Shown: positions 10,095 through 61,142, counted from the first letter of the stretch. The stretch: DNA of 64,000 nucleotides from Rickettsia typhi (GCA_945889175.1 CAMDBF010000003.1:223-64222), one strand, 5' to 3'. The notes: generated by a model from the sequence alone, not told the origin. Numbers and translations: made by a program.

Positions 10095-13000
10095 TTATTT
10101 TAAATAAGATTGCAATTCCAACCAAATACACTCACTTAAATGAGGTAAAAGAGGGGCTACAATTTTACAAAAATTAAAAAGAACAGTGTAAAGTGTATTG
10201 TAAGCGTTTTGTTTGTCGTTATCTTTTTGCGACTTCCAAAACCTATCCTTGTTTCGTCTTATATACCAATTATTTAAGACATCAACAAAAGCGGTAATTT
10301 TTTTACAAGCATCAGGTGTATTGTAGGCGTCCATTGCAAGCCTTACATCGATAGTTAAAAGGCTTAATTTAGACAAAATATAAATATCCATTGCATTGCT
10401 TGATTCAAAACTTTCTTGAGCTTTTATCTCGTCTGCTTTTGAATATATTTTGAAAAAAGTATAAGCATTATTTATTGGCTTTAAAACGAGTCTTGCAACA
10501 TCCTTAATCTCCTGTCCGTTTGCACTAACCAACAAGTCACCACCTTGCATTACAGGACTTGATACAACAAACCACCGCATCGCATCGCTTCCAATTTCGT
10601 CAAAAACTTGCATGGGGTCAGGATAATTCCTTAATCTTTTGGAAAGCTTTTGCCCCTTTGAATCAAGTATAACACCGTGACAAATACAGTTTTTAAATGG
10701 TGCTGTATCAAATAATGCGGTACTTAAAACCATCAAAGTGTAAAACCATCCTCTAGTTTGAGCTGCATACTCAACAATAAAATCTGCAGGATAATTTTTT
10801 GGCTTTAAAAGCGATGGGTCAAGGCTATCTTTGTTAAACGGATAATGCACAGAGGCAAAAGGCATAGATCCAGACTCAAACCAGCAATCAAGAACATCAC
10901 TAACCCTTGAATACTCCTCGTTATCTTTAACAATCTTAATATCGTCAATAAAAGGTCGGTGTAGGTCTTGTATTTTTTGTCCACTCGCTTTTTCAATCTC
11001 TTCAACCGAGCTGAACACTAAAATTTTACCAGTTTTTGATTTCCAAACTGGTATAGGACAGCCCCAATAACGATTGCGACTAATTGACCAATCCCTAGAG
11101 CCCTCAAGCCATTTACCAAACTGCCCATCCCTGATATGCGAAGGTATCCAGTTAATTCCCCTTGGATTATAATGTAAGTAAGATGGTCTGTTTAACTCGT
11201 AGCAATATTCCTCATAATATTTTGTTTTGCTGCCTTTTGGATTTTGCGATATTTTTTTTGCAACAAGGTTAAACCTATGCTTTATTGCAATTTTTTGAGA
11301 AACAACATTATCCGAAATAGTATTAAGGCCAATTTTTTGTATTGGATAGTTACTAAAAGCAAGATTAATAATTTCATCAAGAGCTTCAGTGCAGTAGCCA
11401 TTGCCCTGCATGTTTTTTGAAACCATGTAAGAAACCTCAATTAAACCTTTTTCAAAAGATTCCAAAGCTGGATCGTAAAAACACAGACCAACAAGACCAA
11501 TAAAGCTATCTTTGTTTTGGGGCTTGCCTTTTTGAAACAACATGTAGCGTGGCAAATTGTGCTTTTCGAGTTGAAGATTATAATATATTATAGAATCTTC
11601 AACTTGAGACCTCGTCATTACTTGGTTGTCGGCAAAGTAATAGTATTTTCTTACCTCTTCGTTACCCAAGATGCACTCAAAAAGCAAATCAACATCATCC
11701 ATGCTAACAAGCCTTCCTTCAAGCCTTTGCGTATTAAATCTCAAACCTCTGTTGAGTTCAATCATTCTATTTTTGATTAAAGGATTTGTAACCTCAACAT
11801 ACCAAGAGGAAACGGCTTTATAAATAAGAGGGGTATCCGTTCTCCAGCAATGGGGATAGTTATGGATAATTTGCTCCGTTTTTAACCATGAACCATTTAA
11901 TTTAAGATATCTTATAATATCGTCATTAACACCATCGTAATTTTTTGTACCTTTATCACTAAGGCACTCCTCCAGTACACATCTAGATTTCAGGCGTAAA
12001 GTAAAGTCTGCTATTTTTAAATCTATCAACCTTGAATCATGAAAACACCCAGCATCGTCAATTGGACAAATAACTGATATGCCATTTTTTTCGCATACAA
12101 TCTGATCCTCTTCACCAAAAGCTGGAGCAAGGTGAACTATACCGGTTCCATCTTCGGTAGTAACAAAGTCAGCGGTTAAAACTTTAAAAGCATTTTTAGC
12201 CTCTTCGTCGTTTTTAAAATAAGGGAACAGTGGTTCGTAAGAGCTATTTTCAATATCGGAGCCCTTAAAGGTAAGACTTAAAGGATTAATGCTCTTAAAA
12301 TTTGATGACTCAAGGCTCATTTTTTTATAACTTACTGCCCCTTCTTGAATGATTTTGTCGCTAAAAACAAATCCAAGTTTAGTATAAAATTTTTCAATAG
12401 CAATCCCCCTGGTATCAGAGTTCTCGCCGTAATAAATTAATGGCGATGCCCAAGCTTTAGTAACCCCTTTGCTAAAGTAGAGTTCTAAAATTCCAGATAA
12501 AATTTTAAGCCCAAGTCCAAGACCTCTAAAGCCTTCAATTATTGCAAGGCGAGAAATAGTTATTTCGCTAGCTTCATGTAAAACCCTAATAGTTGCAATC
12601 GCCTGACCGTTGTTGTATATTAGATAATGCTCGTAATCCACATCCGTAACATCCCAAGCAAAGGTTTTATTGAGATTTTTCTCTTTAACAAATACTTCAT
12701 CGCGAATATGTTTTGAGGTATCAAACATTTGATCATTTTCACATTTTTGTATAAAGCTTAAATCAAAACCATCAAGTTCTTTTTTATACTTTGAAATAAG
12801 ATTTTTTGCCAAAATACATTTTTCAGTCGCAGAGCTAAGGCATACATAATCAATATCCTTTCCAACGGCTATAGCAAGATTAGATGGGAGGGTCCAAGGT
12901 GTCGTGGTCCAACCCAGTGCCCTTGCACCAATGTACTTACCGCTTGTTAATATAAATTTTACAGTTGCAGTTTTTGATTGTTTTTCCCTGTAGGCGTTAT

Positions 13001-13598
13001 CAAGTTTTGTTTCAAAGTTTGAAAGAGGCGTTTGACACTTCCATGAGTAAGGCATAACACGGTATTTTTCGTACAAAAAGCCTTTTTTGTGAAGTTCACC
13101 AAAAGCCCAAATCACGGATTCCATGTAAGACTTGTCCATAGTTTTGTAGTCGTCTTTAAAGTCAACCCACCTACCAGATTTTGTAATGTAATCTTGCCAC
13201 TGCTCGGTATATTTCATTACCCCAGTTTTGCAGGCTTGGTTAAAGTTATGTATGCCGTATTTTTCAATAGCAACTTTTCCGCTAATACTTAGTGTTTTTT
13301 CTGTTTCCATTTCAGCTGGTAGCCCGTGGCAGTCCCATCCAAATCGACGCTTAGTTTGATTGCCAAGCATTGTTTGATATCTAGCAAAAATATCTTTAAC
13401 AAAGCTTGTTAAAAGATGACCATAATGTGGCAGTCCATTTGCAAAGGGTGGACCATCATAAAATATAAAATTACCTGTTAAATTAGAATTGTTGACTGAT
13501 TTTTTAAAAATATCGTTCCTTTCCCAATGTCCACGAATTGATTTTTCAATATTGGCAAAATTAAAACTTGAATCATTCATATCTTTTTTAAAAATCAA
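10095..13598 (-). CDS. ileS: isoleucine--tRNA ligase, type 2, carrying two inserted GNAT acetyltransferase domains
   Basis: Motifs in order: HIGH 'PHYGH', 'FGWDCHGLP', editing-domain 'TTTPWTLPSN' and 'GTGIVHLAPAFGEED', 'YPHCWRTDTPL', 'DWSISRNRYWGCPIP', 'DCWFESGSMP' and KMSKS 'KLSKR'. Two GNAT-like segments lie at aa ~275-435 and ~617-814. Confidence 0.9.
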   Translation of the reverse strand: MIFKKDMNDSSFNFANIEKSIRGHWERNDIFKKSVNNSNLTGNFIFYDGPPFANGLPHYGHLLTSFVKDIFARYQTMLGNQTKRRFGWDCHGLPAEMETEKTLSISGKVAIEKYGIHNFNQACKTGVMKYTEQWQDYITKSGRWVDFKDDYKTMDKSYMESVIWAFGELHKKGFLYEKYRVMPYSWKCQTPLSNFETKLDNAYREKQSKTATVKFILTSGKYIGARALGWTTTPWTLPSNLAIAVGKDIDYVCLSSATEKCILAKNLISKYKKELDGFDLSFIQKCENDQMFDTSKHIRDEVFVKEKNLNKTFAWDVTDVDYEHYLIYNNGQAIATIRVLHEASEITISRLAIIEGFRGLGLGLKILSGILELYFSKGVTKAWASPLIYYGENSDTRGIAIEKFYTKLGFVFSDKIIQEGAVSYKKMSLESSNFKSINPLSLTFKGSDIENSSYEPLFPYFKNDEEAKNAFKVLTADFVTTEDGTGIVHLAPAFGEEDQIVCEKNGISVICPIDDAGCFHDSRLIDLKIADFTLRLKSRCVLEECLSDKGTKNYDGVNDDIIRYLKLNGSWLKTEQIIHNYPHCWRTDTPLIYKAVSSWYVEVTNPLIKNRMIELNRGLRFNTQRLEGRLVSMDDVDLLFECILGNEEVRKYYYFADNQVMTRSQVEDSIIYYNLQLEKHNLPRYMLFQKGKPQNKDSFIGLVGLCFYDPALESFEKGLIEVSYMVSKNMQGNGYCTEALDEIINLAFSNYPIQKIGLNTISDNVVSQKIAIKHRFNLVAKKISQNPKGSKTKYYEEYCYELNRPSYLHYNPRGINWIPSHIRDGQFGKWLEGSRDWSISRNRYWGCPIPVWKSKTGKILVFSSVEEIEKASGQKIQDLHRPFIDDIKIVKDNEEYSRVSDVLDCWFESGSMPFASVHYPFNKDSLDPSLLKPKNYPADFIVEYAAQTRGWFYTLMVLSTALFDTAPFKNCICHGVILDSKGQKLSKRLRNYPDPMQVFDEIGSDAMRWFVVSSPVMQGGDLLVSANGQEIKDVARLVLKPINNAYTFFKIYSKADEIKAQESFESSNAMDIYILSKLSLLTIDVRLAMDAYNTPDACKKITAFVDVLNNWYIRRNKDRFWKSQKDNDKQNAYNTLYTVLFNFCKIVAPLLPHLSECIWLELQSYLK

Positions 13599-49262: not shown

Positions 49263-51116
49263 TTGATCTACCAGATCTTATCTATTTTTATTATGGCAGG
49301 AGGAGCACCAGAGCAAGACAAGGTTTTAAGATACTTTAAAAACTTGGTTGTATTAAGTATTTTTTATGGAATAATCCTAGGATTTTTCTATTTTGCAAAC
49401 CTTCTATCAATTATTGCAGTTGTCGAATCCGTCGATAGAGTTATCAGCATCCTGCATTACGACCCTAAATTATATGCTAAACTAGCTATCGAAAGAACTC
49501 TTTACTACTGGTCTTTTTGGTTAAAATACAAAAGTACAATAAATTACTCTTATCATCACTTTTTTGTTATAAAGCTTTTTGCATTAACAATATCGCCTAC
49601 AATTTTATTAATGCTGTACATAAAAACTAAATGGCAAAGCATTAAAGAGTTTGTACCTTATAAGCCAGGGGAGGCTTTACACGGGGATGCCCATTGGGCA
49701 AGTTATTCTGAGATTAAAAAAATCGGTCTCTTTGCTAAGGATGGAATGCTTCTTGGCGAATACAAGCCTTCTAAATATTTTATTATAAAAGACTACCAGC
49801 ATGTACTACTCTTTGCTCCAACTGGATCTGGTAAGGGTGTTGGCTTTGTAATACCAAATCTATTATTTTGGAAAGAGAGCGTACTTGTTCATGATATTAA
49901 ACTTGAAAACTACGAACTTACAAGCGGATATAGATTTAATGTTTTAAAGCAAAAGTGTTACACTTGGGCTCCTGCTGATCCAGAAGGATACTCCCATTGT
50001 TACAATCCACTTGACTGGATAGCAACTCAATCTGGTAAAATGGTAGATGATGTTCAAAAAATTGTAAAAATTGTTATGCCAAAGCAAGAATTTTGGGAAA
50101 ACGAAGCTCGAAGCATGACAGTTGGGGTTATTTTGTTTTTAATAGCCGACGAAACAAAGCCCACAACCTTTGGAGAGGTTGTTAGAACACTAAGAAGTGA
50201 CGATGTAACTCAAACCCTAGCCGTTGCACTTGATACTCTTGGTGACAAGATTCACCCAGTTGGATATATGAATCTTTCTGCTTTTTTACAAAAAGCTGAA
50301 AAGGAAAGATCTGGTGTAATATCTACTGCAAACTCTGGACTTGAGCTTTGGTCAAACCCACTTATCGATAAAACAACATCACGAAGCGACTTTGACATAA
50401 GGCAGTTTAAAAAAGATTTGACAACCGTTTATGTAGGACTAACTCCCGATAACATTGAAAGACTAAGACCTCTAATGTCAATGTTTTACCAGCAGGCGAC
50501 AGCTTTTTTAGCATCTAAAATTCCACAAAAAGATGAACCATATGGCGTTATGTTTATGATGGATGAGTTTCCTACCGTTGGAAAGCTTGAACAATTTTTA
50601 TCTGGTATCGCTTATTTTCGTGGTTACCATGTTAAACTTTTTTTAATCGTACAAGATACTCAGCAATTAAAGGGTACATACGAAGACTCTGGTATGAACT
50701 CATTTTTATCAAACTCTACCTACCGTATAACATTTGCAGCCAATAACATTGAGACGGCAAAGTTAATATCCGAGCTTGTTGGTAACAAAACAGCCGTCTC
50801 AGAATCAATGAACAAGCCAAAGTTTTTAGATCTGAACCCTGGTAGTAGATCAGTCCACATGTCTCATACCCAAAGAGCTCTGCTTTTACCGCAGGAGGTT
50901 ATAGGATTGCCAAAAACAGATCAAATTATTCTTATCGAGGCATCACCACCAATAAGATGTAAAAAAATTAGATACTTTAAAGATAAATTTTTTACAAGGA
51001 AACTTCAAAAACCAATACCAATTCCAAAACAAAAACCTTATACTCCAAAAAGACAGACTCCAAAGCCACAAAATTCAGAATCAAATGCAACATCTTCCAA
51101 TGCGGCTAACAATTAA
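49263..51116 (+). CDS. virD4: type IV secretion coupling protein VirD4/TraG
   Basis: N-terminal TMs, Walker A 'FAPTGSGKGVGFVIPN', 'MFMMDEFPTVG' (Walker B) and 'FLIVQD'. The start is TTG 49263 or ATG 49293. Confidence 0.85.
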   Translation: MIYQILSIFIMAGGAPEQDKVLRYFKNLVVLSIFYGIILGFFYFANLLSIIAVVESVDRVISILHYDPKLYAKLAIERTLYYWSFWLKYKSTINYSYHHFFVIKLFALTISPTILLMLYIKTKWQSIKEFVPYKPGEALHGDAHWASYSEIKKIGLFAKDGMLLGEYKPSKYFIIKDYQHVLLFAPTGSGKGVGFVIPNLLFWKESVLVHDIKLENYELTSGYRFNVLKQKCYTWAPADPEGYSHCYNPLDWIATQSGKMVDDVQKIVKIVMPKQEFWENEARSMTVGVILFLIADETKPTTFGEVVRTLRSDDVTQTLAVALDTLGDKIHPVGYMNLSAFLQKAEKERSGVISTANSGLELWSNPLIDKTTSRSDFDIRQFKKDLTTVYVGLTPDNIERLRPLMSMFYQQATAFLASKIPQKDEPYGVMFMMDEFPTVGKLEQFLSGIAYFRGYHVKLFLIVQDTQQLKGTYEDSGMNSFLSNSTYRITFAANNIETAKLISELVGNKTAVSESMNKPKFLDLNPGSRSVHMSHTQRALLLPQEVIGLPKTDQIILIEASPPIRCKKIRYFKDKFFTRKLQKPIPIPKQKPYTPKRQTPKPQNSESNATSSNAANN

Positions 51117-52000: not shown

Positions 52001-54082
52001 ATGCTTGTAAAACATATATCGCTGAGCAAGTTGATTAAAAATATCACAAAGAAAACATATTATTACACATCAGTAAAATTAAAAGCCTTTTCGTTAATTG
52101 AAGTTGCAATTGCAATTGTACTTGTTGGCATAGTAACATTCCCTCTTATATCTATTACAACTGGCTTTTTAGAGAGGGCAAAGATAGAAAAGACAAACAA
52201 ATCGATAGCCGTCATTAAGGAGTCTTTGGTTTCATATTTTTTAATGAATAAAGCTCTACCCTGCCCAGCCGATCCAACTCTCAATCCAAATAACCCAAAC
52301 TATGGCAGCTCGCAATCTTCTTGTTCTTCAATTAAAGGAACCGTTATAGGTTCGCTACCAGTTGACGCTCTTGGACTTAGTAGAGATTTTATACTTGATG
52401 GTTACGGTCGTAAATTTGCTTATGCCGTTCCAAGCTTTTTAACAACATCAGGAAATGTGCGTTTTTATAAAGATAGAGCAGAAAAAACAATCATTGCATA
52501 TGATGGAAAGGAGCAACTATCTGCTGACAAACAAATTACACTAAATTCATCGGGCGGTACATTAATTGCAAGCGATGTATTTTTTATCATTAATAGTTAT
52601 GGCAAGGATGGGGTTGGTGCCTATCTTGAAAACGGCTCCAGACTTAAAACAACCAACATAAATGCCTCTGTTACCGCCGGAATGGCGTCTTACACAAGCT
52701 CCTTTACCTTGTTTTCAAAAAACGATATCACTGGAGATGATGTTCTGCAATATGGATCGTTTAAATCTATATTAAGCCTATTGCAAGACTACGGGTATGT
52801 AGAATGTCAAGATATAAAAGGTAACAACTCAAGCTTTACGGATATAAACTCTTTTACCTTTCCAAAAACTTCGGCAAATACAACAATAACTGCTAGTGCA
52901 TTAAGTTGTCCAAACGGTACAGCTTTACTTCAAACACCCACTGCAACTTGCTCGTCAAGCGGAGACTGGATAAACTTCAAACCTCAAGAATGTGGGTATT
53001 ATAATAAAGATGTTATTTACGGAACTATTACCTTTGGCGATGTTGGTACCGCAAGTGGTGCAGTTACTTCAACTGGACCAATACTCGCTGCTATCAAAAC
53101 ATTAGATGTCACAGGAGCAACAGCTATAGAAGTTTTAGTCGATAACCTAGGCGGAACCGACTACAGGGTTCAGGCTACATTAAAATCGAACGATGCTAAG
53201 GATGTAAACACTGTAAGCACGCCAGTTATCAAAATTATCGATAGCAGTAAGTTTCATATCCTATTAAAGGACATAGGAATTGCAACTCAAGATCCAAGCT
53301 TTGGAGTATCACTTGTTATAACAAGTCCTTTAAAAGCATCTAACCAACTAGATGCAACATTATATCCTGGCATGCCTCTTTGTACAATAGTAGCTCTGTA
53401 TTCAGAAACGATACCAGATGGATGGAAGCTTTGCGACGGAAAAAACTTGACGACAACTGATACGTGTGATAAGAATTTACAAACATACTGCGGACTTACA
53501 TCTACCGCACCAGACTTGAGAGGTCTTTTTTTAAGAGGTCTTGACAAAGGAAGAGGCATGGATCCAGAGTATTCAACCTCAAGATACAATCCACTAGATT
53601 CAGTCGCCAAAACAAGTGTTACAAAAACAACCACATCAAATGCAATAGGCAGTATACAAGATGAAGCTATTATAGCCCACGCCCACTCCCTTGCAGCAGT
53701 AAAAGCAACCCTAAAAGGAACTGCAACAACAACCATAACTCCACCTGCAACTGGAAATGTTTTACTCTCTGGGACGAGTACAAATGCAATCCTTATCTCT
53801 ACAACTACAACTGCACCTACTGGAACTAGCAGGCTCTTCCAGTTGCCAGGTAACACGCCAGCCTTAGCTGTTGCAGGTCTTAGTGCCTTAAGCTGGCCAG
53901 CCGTTACAAATATTACTGGCATCACTGTTAGTGTTACAGCACCTTCCGTAGTGGGATCAATAGACACTTCATCCGAACAAGACGCAACTACCAGCGGAGA
54001 TATCACAACCGAGACAGCGATGGCAACCAACGAGGTAAGACCTAAAAATATTGCGGTAAATTACATTATAAGATGCAAGTAA
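52001..54082 (+). CDS. chimeric surface protein: prepilin-type N-terminus and pilin-like domain fused to a phage tail-collar/tail-fibre-tip-like C-terminal domain
   Basis: 'KAFSLIEVAIAIVLVGIV' is near-consensus for the N-methylation site (Ala at -1, Glu at +5) and is followed by the pseudopilin-like 'LPCPAD...GSLPVDALGL...DGYGRKFAY'. The C-terminus has 'IPDGWKLCDG...APDLRGLFLRGLD.GRG.D...QDEAIIAHAH...NEVRPKNIAVNYIIR'. Confidence 0.6.
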   Translation: MLVKHISLSKLIKNITKKTYYYTSVKLKAFSLIEVAIAIVLVGIVTFPLISITTGFLERAKIEKTNKSIAVIKESLVSYFLMNKALPCPADPTLNPNNPNYGSSQSSCSSIKGTVIGSLPVDALGLSRDFILDGYGRKFAYAVPSFLTTSGNVRFYKDRAEKTIIAYDGKEQLSADKQITLNSSGGTLIASDVFFIINSYGKDGVGAYLENGSRLKTTNINASVTAGMASYTSSFTLFSKNDITGDDVLQYGSFKSILSLLQDYGYVECQDIKGNNSSFTDINSFTFPKTSANTTITASALSCPNGTALLQTPTATCSSSGDWINFKPQECGYYNKDVIYGTITFGDVGTASGAVTSTGPILAAIKTLDVTGATAIEVLVDNLGGTDYRVQATLKSNDAKDVNTVSTPVIKIIDSSKFHILLKDIGIATQDPSFGVSLVITSPLKASNQLDATLYPGMPLCTIVALYSETIPDGWKLCDGKNLTTTDTCDKNLQTYCGLTSTAPDLRGLFLRGLDKGRGMDPEYSTSRYNPLDSVAKTSVTKTTTSNAIGSIQDEAIIAHAHSLAAVKATLKGTATTTITPPATGNVLLSGTSTNAILISTTTTAPTGTSRLFQLPGNTPALAVAGLSALSWPAVTNITGITVSVTAPSVVGSIDTSSEQDATTSGDITTETAMATNEVRPKNIAVNYIIRCK

Positions 54083-57517: not shown

Positions 57518-60010
57518 ATGTTTAATGGACTTAGTCTTAACAGGCATAAATCAAAAAAAAGAGGGGTAGCTAAATACGAATACTCAACTTCAAACTTCAT
57601 ACCATACTCCCGACATTACAACGGTAAAACTATAGTTACAAAGGACGGTGAACTTATAAGTGTTATAAAAGTATCTGGCTTTTCTTTTGAAACTGCCGAT
57701 GACGATGACCTAAATTTAAAAAAAGACGCAAGAAACAACTTATTAAAAGGCTTTGCAACGGGTCAGTTTGGAGTGTACTTTCATACTATACGAAAAAAAC
57801 ATCAGGCCTATCCAGATGGTAAATTTAGCGACTTAATTTGCAAAGGTATAGACGACGAATGGAGACTGAGGCATGAAAAAGATTATACATTTATCAACGA
57901 GCATTACATTACAATACTACGAAAGAGTAATAAAATTGAAGAGGGCTTTGCTAAGCTATCTAAAAAAATTGCAAGTCGCAAACGCAAAAATAACGATGCA
58001 CTTGACGATGACGAGATAGATGAGGAGGTTCAAAAAGAATTAGCTAAAGTGGAAGAAGAAATATTAAAAGAAAACCACTCTCAACTTGAAGAGGTAAGGG
58101 ACAGAATCTACAATTCACTTTCGGGTTATCAGCCTGAAATACTTGAGGCAAAAAAAACAAGTGATGGCTTTTACTGCCCAATGCTGGAATTTTTATCTAG
58201 CATATCAAATTGCTGTCAGGTGCAAAAGGTTTTGGTTCCCAATATTTCACTAGATAAATACTTGCAAAGAGTAAGGCTTTATTTTAGTGGCAAAACTGGT
58301 GAATTTATAGCGCCAACTGGCGAGAAAAAATACTTTGCAATGGTTAGTTTAAAGGACTATAGAAATACCACGCATGCTGGACTTATGGATTCTTTTTTGC
58401 AGCTTCCATTTGAATTTGTAATTTCACAATCTTACTTCTTTATAGATAAGATGATTGCAGTCAACAAGCTACAATTACAACAAAGAAGACTTATACAATC
58501 AGAGGATGTTGCCATCTCTCAAATTGCCGAAATTAACGAGGCCTTGGACTCTTCAATGTCAGGTAGATTTGCTTTTGGTAATCACCACATGACAGTTATG
58601 TGCATAGGTGACAGCATAAAGGAGCTTGATTCAAATGTATCGCAAACGGTTGTGGAATTTTCGAGCGTTGGTATTAATGCAACGAGGGAAAGATTTAACT
58701 TAGAGCCAGCATTTTGGTCTCAGCTACCAGGTAACCAGTCTTTTATAGGTCGTAAGTCAATTATAAACAGTATGAATGTAGCATCCCTTGCTTCGCTACA
58801 CAATCATCCATCGGGCAAGCGAAAAGGCAACCATTGGGGCGATGCGGTTACGGTTTTTAATACAACATCTGGTACCCCTTATTTTTTTAGCTTTCATGTA
58901 AGAGATGTTGGGCATACAATGATAGTTGGTCCAACTGGTGCCGGTAAAACGGTTTTAATGAATTTTTTATGTGCTCAGGCACAAAAATTTAATCCAAAAA
59001 TATTTTTCTTCGATAAGGACAGAGGTGCCGAGATATTTGTAAGGGCAATAGGTGGTAAATATATTTATCCATCAGCATCCGAATATTCTGGCTTTAACCC
59101 ATTGCAACTTGCCGATACTTATGATAATAGAATTTTTCTTGAAGGATGGTTTGTTGCAATGCTAACATCGGCAGGCGAAAGTCTTGCCGCAGAGGATTAT
59201 GCAATTATCAAACAGGCAGTAGATGGCAACTACAAACTACCAAGAGATCAAAGATGTATATCCAATGTGTCAGCTTTTTTTGGAATGGAAAAAGTTGGTA
59301 GCCTTGCAAACAGACTTGCAAGATGGCACGGACAGGGCTCAAAAGCAAAACTTTTTGACAATCCTGAGGATAGCATTGATTTTTCCCATGGAAGAGTCTT
59401 TGGCTTTGAGATGGGTGATTTACTTAAGGATAAAATATCGCTACCAGCAACCCTTGAATATCTTTTTCACAGAATATCAGGCTCGCTTGATGGTAGTCCA
59501 ACAATGATAGTTTTAGACGAGGCTTGGGCATTGATAGATAACCCTGTTTTTGGACCTAAAATTAAGGATTGGCTCAAGGTATTGCGTAAGTTAAATGCTA
59601 TGGTTGTTTTTGCAACCCAATCAGTTGAAGATGCTACAAAAAGTAACATAAGCGACACATTGGTTCAGCAAACAGCAACTCAAATATTTTTACCAAATCT
59701 TAAGGCAACAGAAGAATACAAAAGAACCTTTATGCTAACCGATAGAGAGTTTAATCTTGTTAAAACAACCGACCCCGGAACAAGGTTTTTTTTAGTAAAA
59801 CAAGATAGCAACGCAGTAATTACAAGAATTAGCCTTGCCGGCATGGACGATATTATATCAATACTCTCAGGAAGAGTTGAGACCGTTGACCTCTTGGATA
59901 AAATTAGAGCAAAAGTGGGCGACGACCCATCCGCTTGGCTACCAATTTTTCTTGATACACTTCATCAGGAGAAGCTAAAGAAAAAATCAGAAAAATCAAC
60001 CGATGTGTAG
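57518..60010 (+). CDS. virB4: type IV secretion ATPase VirB4
   Basis: N-terminal 'FIPYSRHYNGKTIVTKDGELISVIKVSGF', Walker A 'GPTGAGKTV', 'MIVLDEAW' and 'VFATQS'. No virB3 lies upstream and no virB6 downstream. Confidence 0.9.
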   Translation: MFNGLSLNRHKSKKRGVAKYEYSTSNFIPYSRHYNGKTIVTKDGELISVIKVSGFSFETADDDDLNLKKDARNNLLKGFATGQFGVYFHTIRKKHQAYPDGKFSDLICKGIDDEWRLRHEKDYTFINEHYITILRKSNKIEEGFAKLSKKIASRKRKNNDALDDDEIDEEVQKELAKVEEEILKENHSQLEEVRDRIYNSLSGYQPEILEAKKTSDGFYCPMLEFLSSISNCCQVQKVLVPNISLDKYLQRVRLYFSGKTGEFIAPTGEKKYFAMVSLKDYRNTTHAGLMDSFLQLPFEFVISQSYFFIDKMIAVNKLQLQQRRLIQSEDVAISQIAEINEALDSSMSGRFAFGNHHMTVMCIGDSIKELDSNVSQTVVEFSSVGINATRERFNLEPAFWSQLPGNQSFIGRKSIINSMNVASLASLHNHPSGKRKGNHWGDAVTVFNTTSGTPYFFSFHVRDVGHTMIVGPTGAGKTVLMNFLCAQAQKFNPKIFFFDKDRGAEIFVRAIGGKYIYPSASEYSGFNPLQLADTYDNRIFLEGWFVAMLTSAGESLAAEDYAIIKQAVDGNYKLPRDQRCISNVSAFFGMEKVGSLANRLARWHGQGSKAKLFDNPEDSIDFSHGRVFGFEMGDLLKDKISLPATLEYLFHRISGSLDGSPTMIVLDEAWALIDNPVFGPKIKDWLKVLRKLNAMVVFATQSVEDATKSNISDTLVQQTATQIFLPNLKATEEYKRTFMLTDREFNLVKTTDPGTRFFLVKQDSNAVITRISLAGMDDIISILSGRVETVDLLDKIRAKVGDDPSAWLPIFLDTLHQEKLKKKSEKSTDV

Positions 60011-60191
60011 CTAAAGTTTTTAAAATTTACATTCTAAAGTTAAAAAACATAAATTAATATTGACTTTATTTTTTTATTTGAAATAATTTGCAATATCCTA
60101 AAATACTTTTTGCAACATTTAAAGACCCAATTTTACAATGTGGTTTAGCTGTTTATTCAAAAAATAATAATATTCAGTTTCACTTTACAAT

Positions 60192-61142
60192 ATGAACAAA
60201 ATGCTACAAAAACAAAAATTCAACACCAGCGTTTTACTTGGATTGCCAAGACGATTCTTTTCGTATATTCGTGCCGAGAATTACGATATTGACGATTCGA
60301 AAAAGATTTTACAAACTCAACATCACAGCCTAAGTATCGTTCCTTTAATGGAAAATAATACAAGTCATTACAATCTTTATAAACACATCATTACAAAGGT
60401 TGGAGTTTTTAACACTTCAAGTTGGATAATGGGTGCTTTTGGCAAAGATGTATTAAATATTAAAGACCAAAAAAAAGCAGATGAATTTTTTAAAAGCCAA
60501 GAACATATTATTTTGCAGCAGTACAAAGCACTCACAAAATACAATGTAAGCCATCAAGCTGGATACTATACTATTATTAAAGATGGAACTATAGTTGGAG
60601 GTTCTGGACTTATTCCAGTCGGGATTAACCAAACAGTAAATAAAGTTTATTCTTGCGATTTAGCCCTTCATATATTGCCAGATTTTCAAAAAAATGGCTA
60701 TGGCAAGGATCTAACTTTATCATTTTTAACCTTTGGATTCGATAGTGAAAAAGGACTTGATTTACAAACCATTGTTGGAACTTCTTTAAAATCAAACTAC
60801 GGAACCTCAAATCTTTGTCAGCAATTTGGAATGGTTATAAAAAGCAAGGAGGATTTAAAGTATTACTATATAAATAGAAAAATGTGGGATATTTTTATAA
60901 ACAACAAAGACAATCAAGAAAAGACAGCCCTTGGCAATGTTTTTTTAAACAATAAAGAAGAATCAAAGCAAGGCGAAATGCTAAAACTAGATTTTAATCC
61001 ACAATCAGACTCCGCCTCGAATATTGGAATTAATACCTCAGATATTAGAATTGAGTTTAAGCGCGAAGATGAAAATATTGAAAAAACCCTTATTTCTCAA
61101 TCGAAAGATCCTTCAAAACAAGATCAATTAATCTTTCGCTAA
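60192..61142 (+). CDS. GNAT (RimJ/RimL-like) acetyltransferase-domain protein with a C-terminal extension
   Basis: 'LSIVPLMENNTSHYNLYKHI' and the acetyl-CoA motif 'LPDFQKNGYGKDLTLSFLTFGF', then 'SNLCQQFGM'. About 80 aa of low-complexity tail follow. The 3' end overlaps the convergent LysR gene by 53 nt. Confidence 0.55.
   Translation: MNKMLQKQKFNTSVLLGLPRRFFSYIRAENYDIDDSKKILQTQHHSLSIVPLMENNTSHYNLYKHIITKVGVFNTSSWIMGAFGKDVLNIKDQKKADEFFKSQEHIILQQYKALTKYNVSHQAGYYTIIKDGTIVGGSGLIPVGINQTVNKVYSCDLALHILPDFQKNGYGKDLTLSFLTFGFDSEKGLDLQTIVGTSLKSNYGTSNLCQQFGMVIKSKEDLKYYYINRKMWDIFINNKDNQEKTALGNVFLNNKEESKQGEMLKLDFNPQSDSASNIGINTSDIRIEFKREDENIEKTLISQSKDPSKQDQLIFR

Follow-up and report, generated by a model that had tools for sequence, protein, structure and literature searches.

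Why should an isoleucyl-tRNA synthetase (IleRS) carry a complete acetyltransferase domain within its catalytic body? The question is raised by a minus-strand gene in a 64,000-nucleotide stretch of DNA from Rickettsia typhi (GCA_945889175.1, CAMDBF010000003.1:223-64222), referred to below in its full length as the window. To our knowledge, bacterial aminoacyl-tRNA synthetases (aaRSs) tend to be minimal, and it is very rare for their catalytic body to house an accessory domain with a catalytic function. In the present case the IleRS is interrupted, in frame, by a 198-aa domain of the superfamily of GCN5-related N-acetyltransferases (GNATs) (Table 1). We regard it, with high confidence, as a complete GNAT of the RimL/PA3944 class, placed at the turn of the helical hairpin of connective peptide 2 (CP2), apparently catalytically equipped, lineage-specific and under selection.

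Identification of the GNAT domain

The translation of the insert (RGLRFN...HYNPRG) matches aa 617–814 of the protein exactly. Pfam analysis identified the Acetyltransf_3 family (PF13302) at aa 627–776 (E-value 8.9e-15; 56 bits versus the gathering score of 25.4). When a profile of 25 inserts was compared with GNATs of known structure, PA3944 from Pseudomonas aeruginosa (6EDD in the PDB) was the best match (E-value 2.6e-17), followed by 3fbu, 2fck, SpeG and YdaF, while RimL and MccE were found at E-values of 2.8e-4 and 3.3e-4, respectively; the NCBIfam models of RimL, RimJ and RimI match weakly. AlphaFold2 folded the insert as a discrete unit with a pLDDT (predicted local distance difference test) score of ~90 inside the full-length model and of 94.7 for the isolated domain (predicted TM-score, pTM, 0.89), and the topology of the domain model is that of a canonical GNAT (β1-α1-α2-β2-β3-β4-α3-β5-α4-β6-β7). 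The structure comparison with Foldseek was led by RimL (1s7l), SpeG and PA3944, the last with the best TM-score (0.77), with MccE at rank 41 and a probability of 1.0 for all four. The initial annotation, made from the sequence alone, had proposed at this place a second GNAT of about 197 aa, of the RimJ/RimL type, directly before the INWIP block. The domain, its position and its being the second of the protein (after an Acetyltransf_1/7/10 domain nearer the N-terminus) have all been borne out, and every peptide string quoted there is found in the translation. The assignment to the RimJ/RimL type stands as far as the Acetyltransf_3 family and the top Foldseek match are concerned, but the closest solved relative by sequence is PA3944.

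The insert separates N616, the last residue of IKNRMIELN, from I815, the first of INWIPSHIRDGQFGKWL. In IleRS relatives that lack it the corresponding region reads ...MVELNQGINWIP..., with two residues at the junction. In the full-length AlphaFold2 model a strand (aa 593–601) and a helix (aa 606–617) precede the insert and two short helices (aa 820–823 and 826–832) follow it; in the region downstream of the insert (aa 815–832) W817, P819, G825, F827, G828 and W830 are invariant among 93 IleRS sequences, the set to which all conservation values for the synthetase body refer. Alignment of the insert-deleted segment to the IleRS from Candida albicans (6ldk in the PDB) places the junction near residue 440, i.e. 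inside CP2 (residues 427–461), which has been described in that enzyme as a pair of anti-parallel helices. The GNAT therefore interrupts the helical hairpin of CP2 at its turn.

Could such an arrangement result from a mis-joined contig? The source is a metagenome-assembled genome (MAG), which is all that speaks for a chimera, and we give this explanation practically no weight. The identical 1161-aa protein is present on an ENA megahit contig, in a separate Logan assembly (run ERR5863109) and at NCBI, and both junctions are found again in dozens of homologues that have diverged, so that the objection of an assembly chimera, raised as a caveat in the initial annotation, fails. The reading frame is unbroken and the GC content is uniform over both junctions (0.32–0.36 at the insert, like the remainder of the gene). 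An intein or another self-splicing element was likewise rejected: a search for the residues of such an element (Cys, Ser or Thr as first residue and as +1, His-Asn as the terminal pair) found none of them, as the sequence of the insert opens with RGL and closes with PRG, and the +1 residue is Ile815. No direct or inverted terminal repeats above chance size were found at the insert borders.

Predicted active site

Conservation within the insert family was assessed over the same 25 inserts, which are 22–51% identical to that of the window. Three residues are invariant (E105, G118 and K157 of the insert, i.e. E721, G734 and K773 of the full-length protein), and four others are conserved in at least 90% (Y108, N148, S151 and P171, i.e. 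Y724, N764, S767 and P787). G734 is the central glycine of the predicted P-loop QGNGYC (motif A), which would bind the pyrophosphate of coenzyme A (CoA), a contact made in GNATs by backbone amides. The acetyl-CoA motif Q-x-x-G-x-G, as it had been read originally, is thus present as a loop except for its last position, where the window insert has Cys, as against Ala or Gly in the majority of homologues; the motif has been defined as Q/RxxGxG/A (PMC5370406). The expectation that key acetyl-CoA-binding residues are retained agrees with the invariance of G734.

Two of the conserved residues, Glu721 and the Ser767 of an N-x-x-S motif, align with Glu102 and Ser148 of PA3944. In the latter enzyme the S148A variant is essentially inactive and Glu102 touches the acceptor amine (PMC8072286), and the Ser of the PA3944 type has been equated with Ser141 of RimL and Ser553 of MccE (PMC4964394). 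On the putative acceptor side, an aromatic cluster in the α1-α2 loop is aligned to the acceptor-site residues F43 and F44 of PA3944 (PMC8072286); in MccE, an aromatic pair, residues 453 and 466, is reported to stack the adenine (PMC4964394). The cluster belongs to one of three blocks that are specific to the family: VRKxYYF (α1-α2 loop), FYDPxxENFExG (before β4) and NxYPK...YEExYYEL (β6-β7). We take these blocks to fall on the acceptor-site elements of GNATs, and their conservation suggests that the inserts may act on an acceptor that is defined and conserved.

Phylogenetic distribution and evolution of the inserts

Is the insert a peculiarity of a single genome? Among the best 120 IleRS clusters, 37 carry an insert of 167–364 aa (mostly 185–210 aa) exactly at this point. 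Every carrier that could be attributed comes from Rickettsiales MAGs, and the two borders follow a fixed pattern (...ELN-[S/R]G ... G-INW[I/V]P). In GTDB, five species genomes titled as Rickettsiales or 'Rickettsia' MAGs have the insert in the IleRS ORF (open reading frame) between the same motifs, and a sixth match lies at a contig end; because these loci were retrieved with a single peptide pattern taken from a 9-sequence core alignment, their number is a lower bound. The same two-GNAT architecture as in the window is found in an orthologue of 69% identity (P0002/P0121). The contigs of the window IleRS and of P0121 (L001 and L014) both originate from the ENA assembly ERZ27280300, hence two related species with a double-GNAT IleRS share one sample.

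Constraint was judged by comparing the identities of insert and body. In close pairs the two values are similar (95/97, 88/87, 91/92, 94/91 and 90/88% for insert/body), i.e. by this sequence comparison the insert appears to be under purifying selection and as constrained as the essential body. At greater distance the insert diverges faster (48% versus 79% for the body between the window protein and P0002).

Mapping of the inserts on an insert-free reference of 818 aa (P0048) revealed three main hot spots in IleRS and a fourth one near reference position ~540, with shorter inserts (~64–72 aa). Site A (reference ~300–318) lies in the editing domain and harbors chiefly Acetyltransf_1-type GNATs; it is filled in ~10 homologues (including P0002, P0003, P0004, P0005, P0024, P0037, P0040 and P0064) and, in the window protein, by the first GNAT, between the editing motifs TTTPW and GTGIVH. 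At site B (reference ~395–399) the inserts are Acetyltransf_3 GNATs, except in four proteins, where an endonuclease domain of the DUF559/Vsr-like kind takes their place. Site C is the CP2 position of the 198-aa insert. Some IleRSs have three or four inserts, e.g. P0003 (1567 aa). The endonuclease-like domain of site B occurs in P0014 (PF04480, 130 bits, plus PF18741), P0029, P0032 and P0109, and such a domain is seen also in the LeuRS (leucyl-tRNA synthetase) P0310; in these synthetases it is placed in frame within the region of the editing domain.

The subtypes of the site-C insert do not follow the body: comparison of the window protein with P0008 gives 60% identity for the body and 51% for the insert, but with P0003 65% and 25%, and with P0005 68% and 25%. 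In a rough neighbor-joining tree, IleRSs with and without the insert are interleaved. Such incongruence indicates repeated gain, loss or swapping of the domain at site C.

Relatives outside IleRS

The insert profile was run exhaustively over 1.84 billion representative sequences. A word-indexed profile search had returned 16 stand-alone GNATs and no IleRS inserts, whereas the exhaustive search recovered the latter together with matches in LeuRS, a GMP synthase, a tandem array and many proteins with double or single GNATs. One LeuRS (P0150, L012 112-4044) has three Acetyltransf_3 inserts. About 28 of the best 120 LeuRS clusters carry PF13302, among them one labelled Candidatus Deianiraeaceae, and some add NUDIX or DUF559, e.g. 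P0294, which combines GNAT inserts with NUDIX, a nucleotide-hydrolase fold. A single sister MAG (GCA_945881985.1) encodes P0121, the orthologue of the window IleRS, together with a LeuRS that has two GNATs (P0333, L013 1001-4693). Several of the GNAT inserts in synthetases adjoin the editing domain or fall inside it. The presence of GNATs at three sites of IleRS and in LeuRS is a wider habit of these bacteria, a pattern that involves multiple sites and multiple enzymes. Outside the synthetases, the GATase half of the GMP synthase P0152 (1653 aa) is enlarged by ~1100 residues, which contain at least three GNATs, and P0149 (1754 aa) consists of nine tandem Acetyltransf_3 domains.

Relatives that are not inserted include stand-alone GNATs of 175–194 aa, which share 50–58% identity with the inserts at site C of P0041 and P0032 and are encoded between rpmA (ribosomal protein L27) and tig on contigs from freshwater metagenomes (Table 1). 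They could be donors or descendants of the inserted domains. An hmmsearch with the insert profile over all six-frame ORFs of the window found no further GNAT insertions, only the IleRS and one weak match at 60171-61139. The latter belongs to a 316-aa ORF (60192-61142, plus strand), in which Acetyltransf_3 scores below the threshold (22.1 versus 25.4 bits, aa 110–214) and the insert profile gives an E-value of 1e-4. Possibly the ORF encodes a free-standing GNAT that has diverged.

Relationship to known proteins

NCBIfam contains a family, NF040702 ('ileS_w_GNAT'), in which an IleRS polypeptide likewise includes a GNAT domain, thus annotators already recognise IleRS-GNAT composites; the JGI pipeline labels some of the homologues 'isoleucyl-tRNA synthetase/predicted acetyltransferase'. 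The window protein is not a member of NF040702, as it scores 280.6 bits and eight GNAT-bearing homologues 286–313 bits against a cut-off of 1999. The family has a single GNAT, with ~175 extra positions in the CP1/editing region (profile positions 288–552) and not in CP2, and the part of the profile that spans site C (552–618) leaves no room for an insert. The low scores together with the extra positions in CP1 indicate a different lineage and a different insertion site. In a full-text search of the literature, no account of GNATs inserted into IleRS or LeuRS came to light. Apparently, therefore, what is new here is a GNAT at another site of IleRS and in another lineage, and the pattern has so far gone undescribed.

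How do the inserts compare with GNATs of known activity? RimL and the C-terminal domain of MccE belong to the same Acetyltransf_3 fold class and share the active-site Ser with the insert; however, their sequence kinship to the insert family is weak, and RimL is free-standing and MccE is fused to a biosynthetic enzyme, whereas the insert is embedded in a synthetase, i.e. in the drug target. PA3944 is a stand-alone acetyltransferase of polymyxin and NANMO whose physiological substrate is unknown, with ~15% identity in the Foldseek alignment. In the ErdS-type proteins (AspRS-DUF2156) an aaRS is also joined to a GNAT-fold module, which works on the product of the synthetase (PMC8913301), but the fusion is terminal and the module is a double GNAT that depends on tRNA and makes no use of acetyl-CoA chemistry, unlike the internal, single, CoA-type GNAT described here. 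With MupA, MupB and other resistant IleRS2 enzymes the insert would share the concept of resistance residing in the target, and the host belongs to the same type-2 class as the mupirocin-resistant IleRS2 from P. megaterium. Those enzymes resist by their active-site architecture, without an added catalytic domain, and the window protein is not one of the MupA/MupB family (~550 bits versus a cut-off of 1900). Finally, a toxin of the AtaT/TacT/ItaT type, which would be expected to resemble these toxins closely in structure, to have a basic surface for tRNA and to be encoded next to an antitoxin, was rejected: none of these is among the top 50 Foldseek matches, the inserts have an isoelectric point (pI) of 5.5–8.4, and the gene is flanked by TerC and sdhC.

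Host gene and genomic context

The host gene encodes an IleRS of type 2 (eukaryote-like), scoring 814.9 bits with TIGR00392, above the equivalog cut-off of 621.4; Pfam detects tRNA-synt_1 and Anticodon_1, and the nearest structures to the full model (Foldseek) are the IleRSs from yeast and Candida, IleRS2 from P. megaterium and the IleRS from T. thermophilus. Since the HIGH, KMSKS and editing motifs (Table 1) are retained across the aligned sequences, and the neighbors of ileS are housekeeping genes (TerC and sdhC, which flank it, murC and a waaA-like gene), the host appears to be a functional IleRS that serves a Rickettsiales-like bacterium as its housekeeping enzyme, as judged within the 64-kb window. 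Elsewhere the window encodes SecA, DnaK, GroEL, UvrD and the type IV secretion genes VirB4 and VirD4, and with a GC content of 29–39% it is a piece of Rickettsiales-like chromosome.

The longest ORF begins with TTG (13598), while the copy in P0001 (1161 aa) begins six codons later with ATG (MNDSS..., window 13580-13598, minus strand), which is the more likely start. At the other end (10095-10200, the 3' end of ileS), the C-terminus of the host directly follows the helical anticodon-binding domain, as in many insert-free relatives of ~820 aa; the C-terminal domain PF19302, present in other Rickettsiales IleRS2 proteins (1050–1135 aa), is missing from both. Two long ORFs of the window, 25942-27987 (681 aa) and 52001-54082 (693 aa), both on the plus strand, gave no Pfam match at E ≤1e-5; the second sits amid the type IV secretion genes (VirD4, 49263-51116; VirB4, 57518-60010).

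Table 1. Features of the IleRS gene, its inserts and their stand-alone relatives (positions in the window unless a locus is named; residues numbered on the 1167-aa ORF from the TTG start)
Feature	Residues	Position	Strand	Evidence or conservation
Host gene, type-2 (eukaryote-like) IleRS	1–1167	10095..13598	-	TIGR00392, Pfam, Foldseek
HIGH signature, HYGH	58–61	13416..13427	-	H58, G60, H61 invariant, Y59 at least 90%
Editing-domain catalytic motifs, flanking the first GNAT		12105..12908	-	Conserved among the 93 IleRS sequences
Editing motif TTTPW	231–235	12894-12908	-	T231–T233 and W235 invariant, P234 at least 90%
First GNAT (Acetyltransf_1/7/10), site A in the CP1 editing domain	~296–452	12243..12713	-	Pfam; AlphaFold2 pLDDT ~90
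Editing motif GTGIVH	484–489	12132-12149	-	G484, T485, G486, V488, H489 invariant, I487 at least 90%
Editing residue D498	498	12105-12107	-	Invariant
CP-core strand and first CP2 helix, YKAVSSWYVEVTNPLIKNRMIELN	593–616	11751..11822	-	Directly upstream of the insert
Acetyltransf_3 GNAT insert, 198 aa, in frame	617–814	11157..11750	-	Pfam, profile, AlphaFold, Foldseek, translation
Aromatic cluster RKYYYFA, α1-α2 loop	650–656	11631..11651	-	Consensus VRKxYYF; aligned to PA3944 F43/F44
Glu721 on β4 (insert E105)	721	11436..11438	-	Invariant; aligned to PA3944 Glu102
CoA pyrophosphate-binding loop QGNGYC, between β4 and α3	731–736	11391..11408	-	G734 invariant
Ser767 at the start of α4 (insert S151), motif N764-x-x-S767	767	11298..11300	-	At least 90%; aligned to PA3944 Ser148
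Second CP2 helix region, INWIPSHIRDGQFGKWLE	815–832	11103..11156	-	Directly downstream of the insert
KMSKS signature, KLSKR	984–988	10635..10649	-	Invariant
Stand-alone GNAT P0135 (also P0131-P0134)		L009 271-810, L010 1885-2424, L011 271-810

Possible functions of the inserted domain

What reaction might such a domain catalyze? The mechanism that we favor, with a probability of roughly 0.35–0.4, is tethered N-acetylation of small aminoacyl-type molecules, i.e. mimics of aminoacyl-AMP or non-cognate or toxic amino acids. The insert would bind acetyl-CoA via the β4-α3 P-loop, Ser767 and Glu721 would serve as Ser148 and Glu102 do in PA3944, so that a primary amine would be N-acetylated, and the acceptor pocket would be made by the α1-α2 loop (RKYYYF) and the β6-β7 hairpin. 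The acceptors would be non-hydrolysable mimics of aminoacyl-adenylates, as for RimL and MccE, or alternatively non-cognate or toxic amino-acid analogues that have been activated by the synthetase and released by the editing site. With its α-amine capped, the molecule would be unable to rebind or to be re-activated, and the tether to the synthetase would put the acetyltransferase where such molecules concentrate. RimL and MccE acetylate the α-amine of numerous analogues of aminoacyl-adenylates and discriminate little between aminoacyl groups (PMC3817062; PMC4964394), and because of this lack of specificity the presence of GNATs in both IleRS and LeuRS fits a broad function towards aminoacyl compounds (PMC3817062). 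Their occurrence in these two synthetases, in many cases within the editing domain or next to it, is consistent with the proposed mechanism. The latter includes the role conjectured in the initial annotation, neutralisation of Ile-AMP mimics at the target itself, which we regard as a reasonable hypothesis.

Several observations weigh against this proposal. No antibiotic, immunity or biosynthetic genes were found among the genes flanking ileS. The nearest solved GNAT by profile is not RimL or MccE but PA3944, which acetylates polymyxin. For RimL, Glu160 on β6 has been proposed as the general base, with Glu572 as its counterpart in MccE (PMC4964394). The invariant Glu of the inserts sits on β4. 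The position equivalent to Glu160, which we presume from a hand count (with F150 of RimL equated to F160 of the insert) to be insert position 170, beside P171, is occupied by N or Y. The gain from the fusion is unclear, as an inhibitor tightly bound in the synthetic site would be beyond the reach of a tethered domain, and tethering is not required for function, given the stand-alone relatives that are 50–58% identical. GNATs in GMP synthase and in the nine-domain array, and DUF559 or NUDIX in similar loops, suggest permissive loops rather than a chemistry specific to IleRS.

Or perhaps the domain acetylates proteins? A Rim-like enzyme acting on the N-terminal α-amine of a ribosomal or other translation protein, or one that modifies the ε-amines of lysines in IleRS itself and so provides a brake that senses acetyl-CoA, would gain from the insertion co-expression and co-localisation with the translation machinery; we consider this unlikely, though more probable than the other rivals. 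RimL is among the best structural neighbors, the matches of the insert profile include RimJ/RimL-like entries, the NCBIfam models of RimL, RimJ and RimI match weakly, and the stand-alone relatives have rpmA and tig as their neighbors. Rim enzymes act on translation proteins, and RimI also on EF-Tu (PMC9079301). However, this explanation accounts neither for up to three or four GNATs of differing subtype in one synthetase nor for their presence in both IleRS and LeuRS, and no target can be identified; moreover, enzymes of the RimL type form dimers that clamp L12. Somewhat more doubtful still is the idea of a passenger, settled in insertion-tolerant CP1/CP2 loops of reduced genomes and kept because its removal would disrupt an essential gene, or for some generic activity that has nothing to do with IleRS. 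The three or four hot spots of IleRS, whose loops elsewhere hold DUF559/Vsr-like or NUDIX domains, the incongruence between insert subtypes and body, the patchy distribution on the IleRS tree and the matching Acetyltransf_3 domains in GuaA and in the nine-domain array are all in line with a passenger. On the other hand, the residues for catalysis and CoA binding are conserved, in close pairs the constraint on the insert equals that on the body, its borders show no terminal repeats, compositional shift or intein signature, and we know of no mobility function of GNATs.

It is improbable that the domain acts on charged tRNA or uses the aminoacyl product, by acetylation of Ile-tRNA or mischarged tRNA or by passing an isoleucyl group, taken from Ile-tRNA or from Ile-S-CoA, to an acceptor in the manner of ErdS. 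In favor of such a reaction, the inserts are located in CP1 and CP2, the toxin ItaT, itself a GNAT, acetylates Ile-tRNAIle (PMC6125619), GNAT-fold enzymes can take aminoacyl-tRNA as a donor and a fusion AspRS-DUF2156 is known (PMC8913301; PMC12945691), and a latent amino acid:CoA-SH ligase activity has been documented for IleRS (PMC5370406). Yet the insert is a single, ordinary GNAT of the Acetyltransf_3 family, whose CoA P-loop is intact, and not a double GNAT of the Fem/DUF2156 kind, the absence of AtaT, TacT and ItaT from the top structural neighbors argues in the same direction, and constitutive acetylation of Ile-tRNA would be toxic. The inserts are near neutral (net charge -5 to +2, in keeping with their pI), hence they are not obvious RNA binders, and a basic tRNA-binding module finds no support in charge or pI. 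A very improbable extension of the same idea is a coupled machine, in which isoleucine from Ile-tRNA or Ile-S-CoA would be handed to the GNAT and moved to an acceptor amine. Its milder version is an acetylation-based proofreading or self-defence step in class Ia synthetases.

Implications

What would each of these possibilities mean? Should the coupled machine prove true, a tRNA synthetase would have been re-purposed for non-ribosomal amide-bond formation. If the domain is a passenger, then the CP1 and CP2 regions of Rickettsiales synthetases have an unusual tolerance of whole domains (GNAT, NUDIX, DUF559), which would be of interest for aaRS engineering and for the evolution of multidomain synthetases. 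If, as we favor, mimics of aminoacyl-adenylates or non-cognate amino acids are acetylated, the insert would represent the first resistance or quality-control activity built into a drug target, and would bear on microcin-C-like compounds, aminoacyl-sulfamoyl adenosines and aaRS inhibitors of the SB-203207 type.

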